A DNA stretch of 63,440 nt, the filler included. It is 10 parts of 10 records of this genome, joined end to end, with 100 filler letters (N's around TTAATTAATTAA, not from the genome) between each part and the next. Parts side by side here need not be neighbours in the genome. Positions count along the whole stretch, not along the records: positions 58,574 to 63,440 come from SRR20825010_5805; 9 more parts are not named here. One strand, given 5' to 3'. This document shows positions 6,703 to 63,440 of the stretch, piece after piece; position 1 is the first letter of the stretch; every line of letters begins with the position of its first letter. The translations under genes were made by a program, and so were the position numbers. The notes below the pieces were generated by a model. It saw nothing but the letters and a program-made list of their open reading frames with translations. It searched no databases and was not told the origin of the DNA.

Positions 6703-6802
6703 NNNNNNNNNNNNNNNNNNNNNNNNNNNNNNNNNNNNNNNNNNNNTTAATTAATTAANNNNNNNNNNNNNNNNNNNNNNNNNNNNNNNNNNNNNNNNNN
6801 NN
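6703..6802. other. Artificial contig spacer
   Basis: 44 N + TTAATTAATTAA (stops in all six frames) + 44 N. Confidence 0.98.
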
Positions 6803-22037: not shown

Positions 22038-22137
22038 NNNNNNNNNNNNNNNNNNNNNNNNNNNNNNNNNNNNNNNNNNNNTTAATTAATTAANNNNNNN
22101 NNNNNNNNNNNNNNNNNNNNNNNNNNNNNNNNNNNNN
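22038..22137. other. Artificial contig spacer
   Basis: 44 N + TTAATTAATTAA + 44 N. Confidence 0.98.
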
Positions 22138-30139: not shown

Positions 30140-30239
30140 NNNNNNNNNNNNNNNNNNNNNNNNNNNNNNNNNNNNNNNNNNNNTTAATTAATTAANNNNN
30201 NNNNNNNNNNNNNNNNNNNNNNNNNNNNNNNNNNNNNNN
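30140..30239. other. Artificial contig spacer
   Basis: 44 N + TTAATTAATTAA + 44 N. Confidence 0.98.
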
Positions 30240-36819: not shown

Positions 36820-36919
36820 NNNNNNNNNNNNNNNNNNNNNNNNNNNNNNNNNNNNNNNNNNNNTTAATTAATTAANNNNNNNNNNNNNNNNNNNNNNNNN
36901 NNNNNNNNNNNNNNNNNNN
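36820..36919. other. Artificial contig spacer
   Basis: 44 N + TTAATTAATTAA + 44 N. Confidence 0.98.
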
Positions 36920-43773: not shown

Positions 43774-43873
43774 NNNNNNNNNNNNNNNNNNNNNNNNNNN
43801 NNNNNNNNNNNNNNNNNTTAATTAATTAANNNNNNNNNNNNNNNNNNNNNNNNNNNNNNNNNNNNNNNNNNNN
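43774..43873. other. Artificial contig spacer
   Basis: 44 N + TTAATTAATTAA + 44 N. Confidence 0.98.
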
Positions 43874-47529: not shown

Positions 47530-47629
47530 NNNNNNNNNNNNNNNNNNNNNNNNNNNNNNNNNNNNNNNNNNNNTTAATTAATTAANNNNNNNNNNNNNNN
47601 NNNNNNNNNNNNNNNNNNNNNNNNNNNNN
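47530..47629. other. Artificial contig spacer
   Basis: 44 N + TTAATTAATTAA + 44 N. Confidence 0.98.
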
Positions 47630-51373: not shown

Positions 51374-51473
51374 NNNNNNNNNNNNNNNNNNNNNNNNNNN
51401 NNNNNNNNNNNNNNNNNTTAATTAATTAANNNNNNNNNNNNNNNNNNNNNNNNNNNNNNNNNNNNNNNNNNNN
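51374..51473. other. Artificial contig spacer
   Basis: 44 N + TTAATTAATTAA + 44 N. Confidence 0.98.
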
Positions 51474-55307: not shown

Positions 55308-55407
55308 NNNNNNNNNNNNNNNNNNNNNNNNNNNNNNNNNNNNNNNNNNNNTTAATTAATTAANNNNNNNNNNNNNNNNNNNNNNNNNNNNNNNNNNNNN
55401 NNNNNNN
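55308..55407. other. Artificial contig spacer
   Basis: 44 N + TTAATTAATTAA + 44 N. Confidence 0.98.
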
Positions 55408-58473: not shown

Positions 58474-58573
58474 NNNNNNNNNNNNNNNNNNNNNNNNNNN
58501 NNNNNNNNNNNNNNNNNTTAATTAATTAANNNNNNNNNNNNNNNNNNNNNNNNNNNNNNNNNNNNNNNNNNNN
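58474..58573. other. Artificial contig spacer
   Basis: 44 N + TTAATTAATTAA + 44 N. Confidence 0.98.
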
Positions 58574-59032
58574 TTGCTGGCCGCCGGAAAGCGTGCCTGC
58601 GCGTTGCAGTGCCTGCGGTACAAGGTCGAGCCGGTCCAGCGCCTCGATGGCCATGGTTCGCTCGGCGTCGGAGAACGACATGGCCATGGATGACAGGAAC
58701 CCGTGTTCGGCCAGCCGCCCGATCAGCACGTTGGTCAGCACGTCCAGCCGGTCGACAAGGTTGAACTGCTGAAAAATCATTGCGCAATCGCGTCGCCAAT
58801 TGCGCAGGGCGCGTCCCCTGAGCGCCGTGATCTCGACCCCGTCAAAGGAAATCGACCCCGAAGTGGGGTCGACAAGACGGTTGATCAACCGCAGCATGGT
58901 GGACTTTCCCGCACCGGACCGCCCGATGACACCGACAAACTCACCTGGATTGATATCCAGCGTAGCGTTGTCCACGGCCGTGGTGGTGCCGAATTCTCGG
59001 GACAGATTCTTCAGGCTTAGCGTCGCGGTCAT
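58574..59032 (-). CDS. phnC: Phosphonate ABC transporter ATP-binding protein, 3' truncated
   Basis: [42 protein letters not shown]. Confidence 0.92.
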
Positions 59033-59110
59033 GGTGGTGGCCCCCTTCGCCCGACTTTATCGGGCCAATCATCCGGATGAATGTGTTTGGGGCATTCGTA
59101 TCTGGCGTGC

Positions 59111-59150
59111 GTAACAAGTCCACAAACCGTTCGTGAAGGTTTCCTAACAG
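59111..59150 (-). promoter_or_regulatory. Putative Pho box (PhoB site) upstream of phnC
   Basis: Minus-strand heptamers at 11-bp period: CTGTTAG, CCTTCAC, (GGTTTGT), TTGTTAC versus consensus CTGTCAT. Confidence 0.55.
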
Positions 59151-59155
59151 ATGAT

Positions 59156-60328
59156 TCAGGCGACCGTGCGCAACGCCTCGCTCGCTGTTTCCATGGTACC
59201 GTTGGAATAGACCACGCAGCCATCGCCAAGGGTCAGCGCCACGCGGTCACGGTCATCCACGATGACCAGATCCGCCCGCTTGCCGGGCGCAATCGCACCC
59301 CTGTCGGCAAGGCCAAGCGCCTTGGCCGGATTCACTGTGGCAAGACGCGCAGCGCCTGCAAGACCGTTGGCGTCGACCTCGGCCAGGCGGCGGATCGCGG
59401 GTAGAATCGCCGCCGGGTGATAATCGGCAGCCAAGATCGACAACAGACCTTCGGCATGCGCCTGCCGCGCGGATAGATTGCCGGAATAGCTTTGTCCGCG
59501 CATGGCATTCGGAGCGCCCATGGCAGTCATCATTCCCTTGGCGATAGCGGCCTGCGCGGCTTCATGTGTGACCGGGAATTCCGCAATCACCGCCCCCAAA
59601 TCGGCCATCAACTGTGCCTTTTCGACGGTGTCGTCGTCATGGCTGGCCAGCGCGACGCCGTGTTCTCGGCACAGCCGCGCCACGGTGCGCATGTTGGCAA
59701 GTAGCACCTCTTGGGGGCGGTCCCGGTCGGCAATGGATTGCGCCACGATTTGTCGTGCCTCGGTGACCGAGATGCCGTTCTGCGCGGCCTTGTTCCGGAT
59801 GTGGATTTCAAGGTTGCGATACTGTCCCTGCCCCGGTGTGTGATCCATCAGCGACACAAGGTCGACCTGACCATCCTCAAGCAATTGCGCCAGTACGCCG
59901 ACCGCATTGTCAAAGGTGATATCAAATCGCGCATGGATACGGTGATCCACCCGGCATCCCTGCCGCGCACCATGCAACGCCCGGATCACCTGCGACGTAT
60001 GCTCATAGGACCGTCTCTCGCCTTGCGCCGCCGAGCGAGAGAACGAGACCGAGGCATAGGCCGTCGTCACACCGCTGGCCGCCAGTCGGGCGTCCAGTGC
60101 GTTCAACGCCACGTCCATTGGGAAATTCACCCGGGCGCGCGGTTCCAGCTCTTGTTCGATCATGTCGCCATGCATGTCGATGAAACCCGCAAAGATCGTG
60201 TGGCCGCGACCGTCGATGCCGCCGGACACTGAGCCGTCGATAATTTCGGTGATCCGGCCATTCTTGATCCGCAGCGATCCGCGTTGCACCGTGTCAGGCA
60301 GGACGAGAGTAAAATCAGACAGCCACAT
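59156..60328 (-). CDS. phnM: Alpha-D-ribose 1-methylphosphonate 5-triphosphate diphosphatase
   Basis: DMHGD..E....PR, SLMDHTPGQGQY, ASHDD, EFP, GAPN..RG.S.SGN, ADY.P, NPA..LGL.DRG.I..GKRADL. Confidence 0.92.
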   Translation of the reverse strand: MWLSDFTLVLPDTVQRGSLRIKNGRITEIIDGSVSGGIDGRGHTIFAGFIDMHGDMIEQELEPRARVNFPMDVALNALDARLAASGVTTAYASVSFSRSAAQGERRSYEHTSQVIRALHGARQGCRVDHRIHARFDITFDNAVGVLAQLLEDGQVDLVSLMDHTPGQGQYRNLEIHIRNKAAQNGISVTEARQIVAQSIADRDRPQEVLLANMRTVARLCREHGVALASHDDDTVEKAQLMADLGAVIAEFPVTHEAAQAAIAKGMMTAMGAPNAMRGQSYSGNLSARQAHAEGLLSILAADYHPAAILPAIRRLAEVDANGLAGAARLATVNPAKALGLADRGAIAPGKRADLVIVDDRDRVALTLGDGCVVYSNGTMETASEALRTVA

Positions 60329-61034
60329 CGTCTCGGATCTCCTTTTGGGGGGCGTCGGGGGTCAAGTCGATCTCGCGGTCGATCAGGGTCGCCACGTCGC
60401 CGGGATGGTGGAATACCCCGACTATCGCCGTGCCGAGACGTTTCAGTTCGGCCAGCCGGTCGATCAGGGCCGCGCGAGCGGAAGCATCCAGAGAGGCCGT
60501 CGGTTCGTCCAGCAGCAGTAGGCGTTGCGGCAGGATCAGCGCGCGGGCCAAGTTGACCTTTTGCTGTTCACCGCCGGAAAACGTGGTGGGATAAGCGGGC
60601 CAGAGGGCGGGTTTGACGCCAAAGGCCGCCAGCCAGTGCCGGGCTCGTTCCAGCGCGTCCCCGGCGTCGTGTCCGGCAAGGCGCAGTGGCTCGGCCACCA
60701 GCGCCTCGGCGCTGACACGCGGGCGCGCGGTCAAGAACTGAGTGACAAAGCCGATCTCGGTCCGGCGCAAATGGGTCACATCCACATCCGCAGCGCGGGC
60801 CAGATCGATCACCCCGTGTGAGGAATGGAACAGGATTTCGCCCTTGGCCGCCAAATAGCTGCGGTACAGCGTCCGCAGCAGCGTGGATTTGCCTGCCCCG
60901 TTGCGCCCCTTGAGCAGCAGGAATTCGCCCGCATCCAATGTCAGGGAAATGTCGGAAAAGGCCGCCATATGCGTGCCAAGGTGGTGCATGTCAAAGCCTT
61001 TGGACAGGCCGCGTACGTCAAGAATCCGGGTCAT
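60315..61034 (-). CDS. phnL: C-P lyase system ATP-binding protein PhnL
   Basis: L.K.F.MH, G.NGAGKST.L..LY..Y, GFVTQFL..RPRV, P.TFSGGEQQKVNLAR, LLLDEPTASLD, GVFH. Confidence 0.9.
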   Translation of the reverse strand: MTRILDVRGLSKGFDMHHLGTHMAAFSDISLTLDAGEFLLLKGRNGAGKSTLLRTLYRSYLAAKGEILFHSSHGVIDLARAADVDVTHLRRTEIGFVTQFLTARPRVSAEALVAEPLRLAGHDAGDALERARHWLAAFGVKPALWPAYPTTFSGGEQQKVNLARALILPQRLLLLDEPTASLDASARAALIDRLAELKRLGTAIVGVFHHPGDVATLIDREIDLTPDAPQKEIRDDVAV

Positions 61035-61825
61035 AGCTTTGCGTGCACCAATTGTTGTGTGTAAGCGTGTTGCGGGTCTTGAAAGACTTGATCGGCAAGG
61101 CCGGCCTCGACCACTTCACCGCGTCGCATCACCATGACGCGGTCGGCCAGCGTTCGGATCACGCCGAGGTCGTGGCTGACGATGACCATGGTGATCTGGC
61201 GGTCCTGTTGCAGCCGTTTCAACGTGTCCAGCACCAAAGCCTGAACGCTGACGTCCAGCCCGGTGGTCGGCTCGTCCAGCAGCAACAGCGCCGGTTCCAG
61301 CGCAATTGCCTTGGCCAGCTGCACCCGCTGCTGCATGCCGCCGGACAGGTCGATGGGCGGGGCGTCCATCCGTTCCAGAGGGAACTCTGATGCGTCCAGT
61401 GCGCCGCGCGCCTTGTCACGCAGGACGTTGAACCGCCGTTCGCCCGCAACCAGCAACCGCTCGGCCACGTTGCCCGACGAGGAATGCTGCATCAGCAGGC
61501 CAAGATGCGGGTTCTGGTAAACGATCCCGATCCGGGTCGCACACAGCATCCTCCGCGCATAGCGGTCAAGGTCGAACAGGTTGCCCTGCACGTCCGGCAA
61601 GTCCAGCGTATAGCTGCCCGTATCCGGCGTTTCCTCTAGGTTGAGGCAGCGCAAAAAAGTGGATTTGCCCGAACCGCTTTCGCCGACGATACCCAGCACC
61701 TCGCCCGGAAAAACGGTGGCGGACACATTGCGCATCGCCTGCACAGACCCATAGTTCAGCGACAGGCCCTGCGCGGTCAGCAGCGGACGGGTCTTGACCA
61801 GACGGGGGGCGTCCATGGTTTTCAT
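61031..61825 (-). CDS. phnK: C-P lyase system ATP-binding protein PhnK
   Basis: GIVGESGSGKST, VYQNP..GL, GNVAERL, SGGMQQRVQLA, DEPTTGLDVSVQA, DPQHAYTQ.LV. Confidence 0.92.
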   Translation of the reverse strand: MKTMDAPRLVKTRPLLTAQGLSLNYGSVQAMRNVSATVFPGEVLGIVGESGSGKSTFLRCLNLEETPDTGSYTLDLPDVQGNLFDLDRYARRMLCATRIGIVYQNPHLGLLMQHSSSGNVAERLLVAGERRFNVLRDKARGALDASEFPLERMDAPPIDLSGGMQQRVQLAKAIALEPALLLLDEPTTGLDVSVQALVLDTLKRLQQDRQITMVIVSHDLGVIRTLADRVMVMRRGEVVEAGLADQVFQDPQHAYTQQLVHAKL

Positions 61826-62733
61826 GTCATTTCTCCGTTGCTGTACCAGGTTGTTCCGATCTGCACCGGATCGCCTTCGCCACGGCGGATTACCTTGACG
61901 CCCAGGTCGCTGTCCGAAACTTCGTGCAGCGAAGAACCGTCAGCCTGCGGAATCTCGTTCATGAAGTAGCCGCGCGCGCCCGATCTGTGGCAGGTCAAGC
62001 CCGCGTGATCCTCGACCCGGTAGGCCACATCGTCAAAGGTCAACGGCTCGACCCGGGTAAAGGGCGGCACCGCATGCAAGCGCTTTTCGCGGCCCGCCGA
62101 CAGCAGCGTCAGGTGCTGCGCCATGTGCAGCTTTGGCACATCCCAGCGCGGGATCGGCGAGGGCGTCATGACATGGCGGCCATTGACCATCGACGGATAG
62201 GACGCGCCCTGCATCACCCGCCCTGCCCGCACGATCTGCTCATATAGTTGCAGCCACATCCGCCCGTAATCGGCGTCGGCATGCATCTGGCGAGCAATCG
62301 ACATGTTGGGCTGCACAGACCGCAGCGGTTCAGGGTTGGGCACCTGCAACACCAGCACCTGATCGGCGCGCAGCCGTTCCTCTGGGATGCGGTGGCGCGA
62401 TTGGATCAGGTCCGCCTCTAGCGTGTCGGTGGTCACCGGCGCGCCGGAAACGCGCGCCAGAAACTTGCGGATCGAGGCGGCATTGACGCTGTCATCTGCG
62501 CCTTGGTCGATGACCTTGATCCGGGTCCGGGGATTCACCAGCGTGCAGGACACCTGCAACCCGCCAGTGCCCCAACCGCGCGCCATGGGCACCTCTCGGC
62601 TGGCATAGGGCATCTGGCAGCCGGGCACGGCAATTGCCTTCAGCATCTTGCGGCGGATTTCGCGCTTGGCGGACCCGTCGAGAAAACCGTAGGCCATCGG
62701 CTCCCAGTCGCGTGTCAGGGATTTGAGGGTCAT
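61822..62733 (-). CDS. phnJ: PhnJ homolog (alpha-D-ribose 1-methylphosphonate 5-phosphate C-P lyase), divergent, lacking three of four conserved C-terminal cysteines
   Basis: KR.IRR..LKA.A.PG.Q, GWGTGG, KVIDQGADD..NA.SIR, IQSRHRIPE, QVP.PEPLR, PSPIP..D, AGREKR..AVPPFT.VE; start at ATG 62733 overlapping phnI stop. Confidence 0.92.
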   Translation of the reverse strand: MTLKSLTRDWEPMAYGFLDGSAKREIRRKMLKAIAVPGCQMPYASREVPMARGWGTGGLQVSCTLVNPRTRIKVIDQGADDSVNAASIRKFLARVSGAPVTTDTLEADLIQSRHRIPEERLRADQVLVLQVPNPEPLRSVQPNMSIARQMHADADYGRMWLQLYEQIVRAGRVMQGASYPSMVNGRHVMTPSPIPRWDVPKLHMAQHLTLLSAGREKRLHAVPPFTRVEPLTFDDVAYRVEDHAGLTCHRSGARGYFMNEIPQADGSSLHEVSDSDLGVKVIRRGEGDPVQIGTTWYSNGEMT

Positions 62734-63440
62734 TCGGCAGGCTCCGGTTGTTTGTCCTTTGCTGCGGCCGTGCTGCGCGCGTTGCGCATGGCGTCCAGCG
62801 AGGATTGGAAAGTGACGTAATGGGGCAGTTTGAAATGGATGCAAAAGCCCGAGCTTTCGACGCCTTCGGTGTGATAGAGAAAGAACTCTTCTTCCGTGGC
62901 CGCCCCTTTGGGCGCGCCCTTGGCGTTCAGGTCCAGCGTGGCGGCGGCGATCACCTTGACCTCGTTCCAGCCCAGCGTTGCCGAAAAGCCTAGCCCCAGT
63001 TCGCGGCCCTGCTTAGACACCACCTCTGCCTGCGAAACCTTGACCCGCCCGGCGCTGAACTGCGTGCCGCGCGGGTGTTTCACAACAATTTCGGCCTCGG
63101 CCAGTCGCAGTTCGTTGACGGTCGGGTGGGCCTGCCCATAGCCGCGCTGCGCCGCATAGCCCAGCGCCAGCACGCCGCCGGTTTCCGCCCGCGCCAGCGA
63201 TTGCAGGGTATGGGCACGCTTGGCGGGAAACAGCAGCGGTTCGCGTGTGACATCGGGAATGGCATTGCCAAGGGTCTGGTCCGCCTCGGGAGCGGTCAGC
63301 AGGCCGTTCGCCGCCTGCCACGCCGCGACCGATGGCTGCTGCGCCGGTGCGGGAGTGTCGGCCGGAGTTACGGCGGCGGGCACATGAGTTTCGCCCTCCA
63401 GCACCTCGGTGGCCAGAATACGGTGGGCATAGTCCAGCGT
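62730..63440 (-). CDS. phnI: C-P lyase complex subunit PhnI, 5' part outside the window
   Basis: DVTREPL.FP..R...LQ.LAR, LGY..QRGYG..HP, EEF.L.H...V..SGF..H.KLPHYV.FQS. Confidence 0.9.
   Translation of the reverse strand, partial: TLDYAHRILATEVLEGETHVPAAVTPADTPAPAQQPSVAAWQAANGLLTAPEADQTLGNAIPDVTREPLLFPAKRAHTLQSLARAETGGVLALGYAAQRGYGQAHPTVNELRLAEAEIVVKHPRGTQFSAGRVKVSQAEVVSKQGRELGLGFSATLGWNEVKVIAAATLDLNAKGAPKGAATEEEFFLYHTEGVESSGFCIHFKLPHYVTFQSSLDAMRNARSTAAAKDKQPEPAE

Follow-up and report, generated by a model that had tools for sequence, protein, structure and literature searches.

A Cys-less type of PhnJ in a marine bacterial operon: a candidate C-P lyase without the PhnJ-bound iron-sulfur and S-adenosylmethionine module

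Carbon-phosphorus (C-P) lyase genes of a marine bacterium were analysed in a DNA window of 63,440 nucleotides (nt), the window being the whole stretch under analysis. Its phnJ gene encodes a protein (P0001) in which three of the four functional cysteines of the canonical enzyme are replaced. The window consists of separate pieces joined by nine identical linkers, and the analysed locus is limited to the contiguous positions 58574-63440 (about 4.9 kb). Genes run into the linkers on either side; the window is thus a concatenation, and the order of genes separated by a linker carries no meaning. The locus has the order phnI(partial)-J-K-L-M-C(partial), all on the minus strand (Table 1). ATGA overlaps were present at the phnI/J, J/K and K/L junctions, and phnL and phnM overlap by 14 nt. 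A preliminary description of this DNA had presented phnI to phnM as intact and translationally coupled. Genes phnJ, phnK, phnL and phnM are intact and the junctions overlap, but phnI is truncated by the window end. The gene context, with phnJ lying between phnI and phnK in an operon with a phosphonate transporter gene, agrees with the assignment to PhnJ.

In canonical PhnJ of Escherichia coli, C241, C244 and C266 ligate a [4Fe-4S] cluster, Gly32 carries a glycyl radical and Cys272 a thiyl radical. P0001 matched the Pfam profile PF06007 at 381.7 bits (cut-off 25) over profile positions 4-268 of 275 and aligned to the E. coli chains 7z15_D and 4xb6_D over residues 15-276 (E 6e-78). Canonical copies score 474-500 bits with this profile and copies lacking the three later cysteines, called the Cys-less type here, score 377-391 bits. 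Alignment followed by a check of the codons placed C248 (codon 61990-61992) at the position of C241, S251 at C244, V272 at C266 and G278 (codon 61900-61902) at C272. The reading of this segment as C, S, V and G, with the first Cys alone kept, was therefore exact. The C241 equivalent is the sole cluster ligand retained and a Gly occupies the place of the thiyl residue. As had been counted, only three Cys occur in the whole 303-residue protein (positions 39, 63 and 248). The motifs listed earlier as retained were all found, namely the Gly32 equivalent, GWGTGG, the His108 equivalent, PSPIP and AGREKR, and R113, the equivalent of R107, can be added. Sixty-six PhnJ positions are at least 97% invariant across both types, among them G38, R113, H114, Q130 (the Gln124 equivalent), the GWGTGG loop, the C241 equivalent and D274.

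The AlphaFold model of P0001, built on 49 clade members, had a mean predicted local distance difference test (pLDDT) score of 83.2 and a predicted template modelling (pTM) score of 0.84. Its best matches in the PDB were E. coli PhnJ chains, with 7z18_D at the top (TM 0.82/0.89, root mean square deviation 2.8-2.9 Å). The predicted structure shows the fold of PhnJ, with both its central insertion and its C-terminal domain. Local confidence is high over residues 241-300 (Table 1), and the former cysteine region thus has a confidently predicted fold. It follows directly from the sequence that P0001 would be unable to hold the canonical three-Cys [4Fe-4S] site. In that respect the earlier claim that this PhnJ cannot make a 5'-deoxyadenosyl radical in the canonical way is supported.

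Table 1. Coordinates of the genes, sites and linkers described in the text, counted along the whole window.
Feature	Position	Strand	Evidence
phnI, C-terminal 236 codons, truncated by window end	62730..63440	-	PF05861 198.8 bits, profile positions 121-347; E. coli PhnI 7z15_C E 3e-28
PhnI metal-site strand	62820..62843	-	Equivalents of Zn ligands His328 (62835-62837) and His333 (62820-62822); alignment and codons
phnJ, Cys-less type, 303 aa (P0001)	61822..62733	-	PF06007 381.7 bits; E. coli PhnJ E 6e-78
G38 codon, equivalent of E. coli Gly32	62620..62622	-	Alignment and codon check
H114 codon, equivalent of E. coli PhnJ His108	62392..62394	-	Alignment and codon check
C-terminal-domain stretch in place of CX2CX21CX5C: C248, S251, V272, G278	61900..61992	-	E. 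coli alignment, codons; model pLDDT 89-94 over residues 241-300
phnK, ABC ATPase; start overlaps phnJ stop	61031..61825	-	TIGR02323 227.6 bits, below equivalog cut-off 302.85; ABC_tran
phnL, ABC ATPase	60315..61034	-	TIGR02324 228.3 bits, below cut-off 256.3
phnM, RPnTP diphosphatase	59156..60328	-	NF011988 466.4 bits (cut-off 369); TIGR02318 403.4 bits (cut-off 390.55)
phnC, N-terminal part, phosphonate ABC transporter ATPase, truncated by linker (N run 58530-58573)	58574..59032	-	TIGR02315 E 6e-51, profile positions 2-151
Nine identical linkers, 44 N + TTAATTAATTAA + 44 N	6703-6802, 22038-22137, 30140-30239, 36820-36919, 43774-43873, 47530-47629, 51374-51473, 55308-55407, 58474-58573		

Public sequencing runs were searched with words sampled from the locus (4.8 kb), and 18 runs held at least half of them. 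The runs with locus words stem from 10 studies, four of which are possible sources of the window. Contigs of two runs (X12 and X17) cross phnJ, with all 25 listed differences at 58709-60507 and none in phnJ. Contigs of a third run (X5) span 61095-62137 and 62155-63400, nearly all of phnJ, without a difference. The phnJ sequence is reproduced by independent DNA runs and no assembly error was found in the reads. The frame is intact and the residue pattern is common to the homologues, in agreement with the earlier statement that no frameshift is involved. An RNA-seq run (X19) gave two exact short contigs, one in phnL (60586-60822) and one in phnI (63007-63171), for which DNA carry-over is possible; they are a weak hint of transcription of the locus.

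The 120 best database homologues comprised 119 proteins at 83-100% identity to P0001 and one longer protein at 71%. Most were from the Roseobacter group (for example Pseudooceanicola, Roseovarius, Sagittula, Salipiger, Marivita and Celeribacter). In all 120 the four positions are occupied by Cys, Ser, V/I/L/M and Gly, and the substitutions are therefore not private to the window sequence. A second protein search with a Synechococcus query added Thermus, Meiothermus, Deinococcus, Anaerolineae, Roseilinea and Oscillochloris and yielded 133 distant members. In none of these 133 did the C-terminal domain contain a CxxC, and the three altered positions were likewise free of Cys. The Cys272 position is Gly in every close homologue and A, M, L, G, V, I or H in 132 of the distant members, with one gapped. 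The Gly32 equivalent is Gly in 119/120 close and 130/133 distant members (249/253), the C248 equivalent is Cys in 244/253, and the His108 equivalent is His throughout (120/120 and 133/133).

A single Cys is present in the PhnJ of 87 of the 133 distant members, and the PhnJ of Thermus thermophilus has one. Seven full-length PhnJ of a Chloroflexota-like subgroup (P0333, P0335, P0341, P0352, P0376, P0386 and P0387) have no Cys at all, the C241 equivalent being Asp or Ser. The predicted incapacity for the canonical cluster site is strengthened by these seven proteins and by relatives whose PhnG, PhnH, PhnI and PhnL are without Cys and whose PhnJ has one or two. Cys39, which lies beside the Gly32 equivalent, was considered as a relocated thiyl residue and rejected. 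This position is Tyr in rhizobial, Chloroflexota, Deinococcus and Synechococcus members, and the Cys is also present in one canonical PhnJ. Two Chloroflexota PhnJ matches (G539:C63:54983-55834 and G575:C61:22028-22894) each contain one in-frame TGA and may be broken or recoded.

Cysteine patterns and phylogeny were determined for 86 PhnJ from genome loci. This set consisted of 80 loci from one-genome-per-species contigs and a few loci from whole-genome searches, minus seven duplicates; it omits a search of 50%-identity cluster representatives, which were mostly fragments. Fifty-three sequences had all four cysteines (CCCC), 33 had the first Cys only and there were no intermediates. In a maximum-likelihood tree the 33 Cys-less PhnJ formed one side of a single branch, supported by a Shimodaira-Hasegawa-like approximate likelihood ratio test (SH-aLRT) value of 99 for the full length. 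The same branch was recovered at 95 from the 226 N-terminal columns; with the C-terminal domain removed, the columns of the cysteine trait itself play no part in the grouping. The tree is unrooted and gives no direction, loss or gain, for the cysteine change. Members of the branch were Rhodobacterales, Devosia, Maritalea, Hoeflea, Sinorhizobium, Mesorhizobium, Chloroflexota, Deinococcus and hot-spring Synechococcus. At higher rank the clade extends over Rhodobacterales, Hyphomicrobiales, Chloroflexota and Deinococcus-Thermus as well as the Synechococcus of hot springs.

The median pairwise ratio of nonsynonymous to synonymous substitution rates (dN/dS) was 0.138 for the whole gene and 0.26 for the C-terminal domain. 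These values come from 18 alphaproteobacterial members (153 pairs, 100 with usable dS) and are rough as dS was near saturation; they nevertheless rule out decay. The homologues, tree and dN/dS together give the conserved Cys-less clade under purifying selection that the preliminary description had named as support. A decaying pseudogene or a sequencing or assembly artefact has a negligible probability, being refuted by the intact frame, the coupled genes, the identical independent runs, the pattern shared by 120/120 homologues, a dN/dS of 0.14 and the confidently predicted fold.

The remaining subunits of the complex have diverged along with PhnJ. Even between phyla, the PhnG, H, I, K, L and M encoded by Cys-less clusters resemble one another more than they resemble their canonical counterparts in the same genome. 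The Pfam scores of PhnG, H and I in Cys-less clusters are far below those of canonical copies in the same locus. A clade-specific Cys in PhnI (62841-62843; residue 323 of PhnI in the Thalassovita locus L002) aligns with V326 of E. coli PhnI, two residues ahead of His328. It is present in 28/29 Cys-less and 2/49 canonical clusters, with Val, Ile or Ala in 45/49 of the canonical clusters. The only two canonical clusters with a PhnI Cys beside the His pair are those of two Rhodobacterales metagenome-assembled genomes (L044 and L045), which fall in a separate, long-branched four-Cys PhnJ group of Rhodobacterales and Burkholderiales. Other single clade-specific Cys were found in PhnH (22/29 Cys-less clusters) and PhnM (20/25). 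No partner subunit gained a multi-cysteine motif, each having at most one clade-specific Cys. The PhnI Cys is a promising candidate residue of an altered metal site. As a universal replacement of Cys272 it was ruled out, being missing in Synechococcus clusters, the only ones for which a phenotype is reported.

The single Cys of PhnI, PhnH and PhnM and the retained C248 of PhnJ would be available if a [4Fe-4S] cluster were held by other ligands, either the Cys of several subunits or non-Cys residues, with the chemistry still canonical. This arrangement is very improbable. The Synechococcus clusters lack the clade-specific Cys of both PhnI and PhnH, and in one Synechococcus genome (G413) the predicted open reading frames of PhnG, H, I and L are free of Cys and PhnJ has two. 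The one-Cys PhnJ of Thermus thermophilus and the seven Cys-free PhnJ speak against it as well, and Cys272 would be without a replacement in any case. Assembly of a cluster from the Cys of several subunits was dropped, since the PhnI and PhnH Cys are not universal and near-Cys-free complexes exist.

The metal/His site between PhnI and PhnJ is preserved. The equivalents of PhnI His328 and His333 and of PhnJ Arg107, His108, Gln124 and loop 47-50 are all present in the window and are invariant in both types, with both PhnI histidines in 29/29 Cys-less and 49/49 canonical clusters. In the E. coli structure described by Amstrup et al. 2023 (PMC9947105) PRcP, the product that PhnJ forms, is bound at the His site through these residues including PhnJ His108, and both PhnI histidines are stated to be indispensable for growing on phosphonate. 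According to the same source the putative Fe-S site is 30 Å away from Gly32, and its authors consider the radical mechanism not immediately reconcilable with the structure.

Given that distance, the canonical enzyme too must rely on radical transfer over a long range or on a rearrangement. It is one argument for a second possibility, in which a glycyl radical is installed on Gly38 in trans by a separate radical S-adenosylmethionine (SAM) activase or by a canonical PhnJ, with C248 as the thiyl residue. The near-constant Gly32 and C248 equivalents (249/253 and 244/253 clade members) also fit such activation. We regard it as improbable. No radical SAM, oxygenase or ferritin-like neighbour was found among 30 flanking proteins of the Roseobacter, Chloroflexota and Deinococcus loci examined, and the co-occurring genes of these kinds for which the preliminary description had suggested looking did not appear as conserved neighbours in the loci scanned. 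The seven Cys-free PhnJ could not supply the thiyl residue, Ala replaces the Gly in three sequences, and many carriers are strict aerobes in which we know of no glycyl-radical enzymes.

The Ala variant belongs to a hot-spring Synechococcus sublineage (L029:9986-10852 of Synechococcus sp. H55.6, P0397, P0402 and P0403), where phnJ sits in an intact phnCDE-GHIJKLM cluster. It is present in three distinct sequences from several strains and thus is not a single read error.

The full layout of a Cys-less cluster is seen in the Thalassovita locus L002, which reads phnF-G-H-I-J-K-L-M-C-D-E-E. PhnD encoded by a related cluster was about equally similar to its E. coli counterpart (E 1e-25) and to the phosphite-binding PtxB (4e-25) and gives no clue to the substrate. 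In one Anaerolineae metagenome-assembled genome a HAD-family hydrolase and a flavin adenine dinucleotide (FAD)-dependent oxidoreductase directly follow the Cys-less cluster (L026:13585-15551); the two genes may constitute a side pathway of the phosphonatase type.

The Cys-less type is the sole PhnJ in a number of genomes. These are three of the 24 carriers in the family sample described below, three Chloroflexota genomes reached through their loci, all seven carriers in a 301-genome Chloroflexota sample (in which 14 other PhnJ at 52-58% identity were left unclassified), one Deinococcus and all four PhnJ-bearing genomes among 12 of the hot-spring Synechococcus genus. Constant co-occurrence with a canonical phnJ, which had been named as a ground for abandoning the claim of new chemistry, is thus usual in the lineage of the window but not general, as the Chloroflexota, Deinococcus and Synechococcus genomes have the Cys-less type only. 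PhnN acts downstream of C-P cleavage. In one Cys-less-only genome (G104) a PhnN (182.8 bits, cut-off 156) is encoded 8 kb from phnJ, beside a second phosphonate transporter.

A possible phenotype is provided by Synechococcus. Protein P0395 (NCBI ABD01166.1, Synechococcus sp. according to the source) is a PhnJ of the Cys-less type, and genome G413 encodes an identical protein as its single PhnJ, in a phnC-D-E-G-H-I-J-K-L-M cluster. We take ABD01166.1 to be from Synechococcus sp. JA-2-3B'a(2-13) (OS-B'). Gomez-Garcia and colleagues reportedly observed in 2011 that this strain releases methane or ethane from the corresponding phosphonates. A full phn cluster and growth on phosphonates as sole phosphorus source are described for strain JA-2-3B'a(2-13) by Teikari et al. 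2018 (PMC5955973). If both the strain assignment and the reported gas release hold, alkane-releasing C-P cleavage is sustained in vivo by a PhnJ that has none of Cys244, Cys266 and Cys272.

From the gene anatomy, the clade, its purifying selection, its genome distribution and the missing cysteines, all observed directly, we infer a working second type of C-P lyase without the PhnJ-bound [4Fe-4S]/SAM module, to which we assign a probability of roughly 0.55. The evidence for it is the C-P lyase family, fold and operon, the single-branch clade under purifying selection, the retained function-linked residues, the co-diverging operon, the role of sole PhnJ in many genomes, the PhnN of G104 and the putative link to the Synechococcus phenotype. 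To this is added that no alternative Fe-S site is visible, the partners having gained at most one clade-specific Cys. Without the three-Cys site and Cys272, cleavage could not be started by a PhnJ-bound cluster and SAM, nor could it proceed via a Cys272 thiyl radical. Both the cleavage of C-P bonds by the Cys-less type and the manner of that cleavage are put forward as proposals.

Under the proposed mechanism PhnCDE would import the phosphonate, and PhnI with PhnG, H and L would couple it to ribose derived from adenosine triphosphate. PhnM would then trim the product to 5-phosphoribosyl-1-phosphonate, which would bind at the conserved metal/His site between PhnI and PhnJ. As a guess, cleavage would occur at the metal centre of the His site or be triggered by a factor whose gene lies outside the operon, and the canonical Fe-S module would be dispensable in the Cys-less type. 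New C-P cleavage chemistry at the PhnI-PhnJ metal/His site, giving methane from methylphosphonate without a PhnJ Fe-S cluster, SAM cleavage or a thiyl Cys, is a tentative proposal and appreciably less probable than the existence of the second type as such. The interpretation offered in the preliminary description stands as far as the Cys-less clade, its purifying selection and the missing canonical site are concerned, but none of its suggestions of a partner radical, another metal centre or another substrate was demonstrated.

A number of points weigh against a working second type. In the lineage of the window co-residence with a second PhnJ is usually the rule. A sample of 401 genomes from the family of the Thalassovita genome, 210 of them with any PhnJ match, contained 24 Cys-less carriers (at least 74% identity to P0001). 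A second PhnJ match was present in 21 of the 24, and its absence from the other three was confirmed with the Pfam profile. Among the matches listed, 14 of the 21 second copies were at 48-50% identity. The CCCC pattern of the co-resident PhnJ was confirmed in three cases (L005b, L086 and L087). Second PhnJ were also found in all Paracoccus, Sinorhizobium, Mesorhizobium, Devosia and Maritalea carriers and in four of five further relatives, including the nearest (L001, 91% identical), the fifth being a metagenome-assembled genome. It is therefore conceivable that the Cys-less system relies on the canonical one in this lineage. No phnN, phnO or phnP was found inside the Cys-less clusters of the related loci examined, and in four of five Cys-less-only genomes searched PhnN-like matches were below the cut-off. 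Non-radical cleavage of an unactivated C-P bond has no precedent to our knowledge. Constraint on structure rather than on catalysis may account for the conserved residues, and the Ala at the Gly32 position in the Synechococcus sublineage could be decay there. Activity of the Cys-less type is a prediction from sequence, and the Synechococcus phenotype depends in part on our assumed strain identity.

The two clusters are often linked. In locus L005 (177-17302) a canonical phnGHIJ-(histidine phosphatase)-KL-N-M set is directly upstream of the Cys-less set, and in three genomes canonical and Cys-less clusters are 18-25 kb apart on one contig (G113 contig C14, G333 contig C3 and G398 contig C28). 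Such tandem or linked clusters together make up a phosphonate island, in which the second cluster is followed by the only transporter set.

Linkage and co-residence both fit a non-cleaving paralogue. Its complex would ribosylate and trim the phosphonate with PhnJ as a mere scaffold docking PhnK/L, and either the co-resident canonical PhnJ would cleave or the substrate would need no radical step. The catalytic Cys272 and two cluster ligands are absent, as this explanation would have it, and PhnJ is the docking site of PhnK in the E. coli structure (PMC9947105). It is nevertheless somewhat unlikely. Several lineages have the Cys-less type as their sole PhnJ, and a mere scaffold would not be expected to retain the Gly32 equivalent and all the PRcP-contacting residues. 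PhnN near the cluster of G104 and the reported release of methane by Synechococcus also argue for cleavage.

The Cys-less clade is a natural test of the four-cysteine PhnJ mechanism, and the accepted mechanism may not hold for all C-P lyases. Should C-P bonds indeed be cleaved by the Cys-less enzymes, the Fe-S/SAM module would be neither essential nor the universal heart of C-P lyase. The PhnI-PhnJ metal site would be the prime catalytic candidate, addressing the structural puzzle that the authors of the E. coli structure call unresolved, and the 30 Å gap would reflect an incomplete model. A C-P lyase free of Fe-S could withstand oxygen and save iron, a point of relevance for surface oceans. 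C-P lyase is the only route from methylphosphonate to methane known to us. The phnJ gene is described as a common marker for aerobic methane production in oceans and lakes, and the four PhnJ cysteines serve to validate new PhnJ sequences according to one source (PMC11978286). Annotation pipelines give Cys-less and canonical PhnJ the same name, as seen in the names of the homologues, and surveys that count phnJ may score two different systems per genome in Roseobacters. A full-text literature search found no mention of a Cys-less PhnJ within its coverage; key mechanistic and structural papers and their supplements lie outside that coverage and may already show the variant. Judged from its sequence, the Cys-less PhnJ is apparently an undescribed variant, which may have been noted before, and to represent new chemistry it would have to be shown active without an Fe-S cluster.

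Three known systems can be compared with the Cys-less type. Pyruvate formate-lyase with PflA is a glycyl radical enzyme with a separate activase. Cys-less PhnJ resembles it in having a conserved Gly, mostly one conserved Cys and no Fe-S site of its own, a likeness that fits activation in trans. The two are unrelated in fold and sequence, no activase gene was found near the Cys-less clusters scanned, and some members are without the Cys or the Gly. The second system is the C-P lyase linked to the htx genes of Pseudomonas stutzeri, which White and Metcalf reportedly described in 2004 as a second operon. By this description the genome has two sets with the second one divergent; the case is a lead rather than a test. 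The closest system is the E. coli C-P lyase core, with PhnJ in Phn(GHIJ)2K/L (PDB 4XB6, 7Z15-7Z19). Compared with it, the Cys-less type has Cys244, Cys266 and Cys272 replaced, an extra conserved C-terminal tail of about 25 residues on PhnJ, divergence in all partners, a PhnI Cys beside the Zn ligands and no phnN/O/P in the cluster. The two have in common the Pfam family and fold, with 47% identity, the operon partners PhnG, H, I, K, L, M, C, D and E, and the equivalents of PhnJ Gly32, Arg107, His108, Gln124, loop 47-50 and Cys241 and of PhnI His328 and His333.

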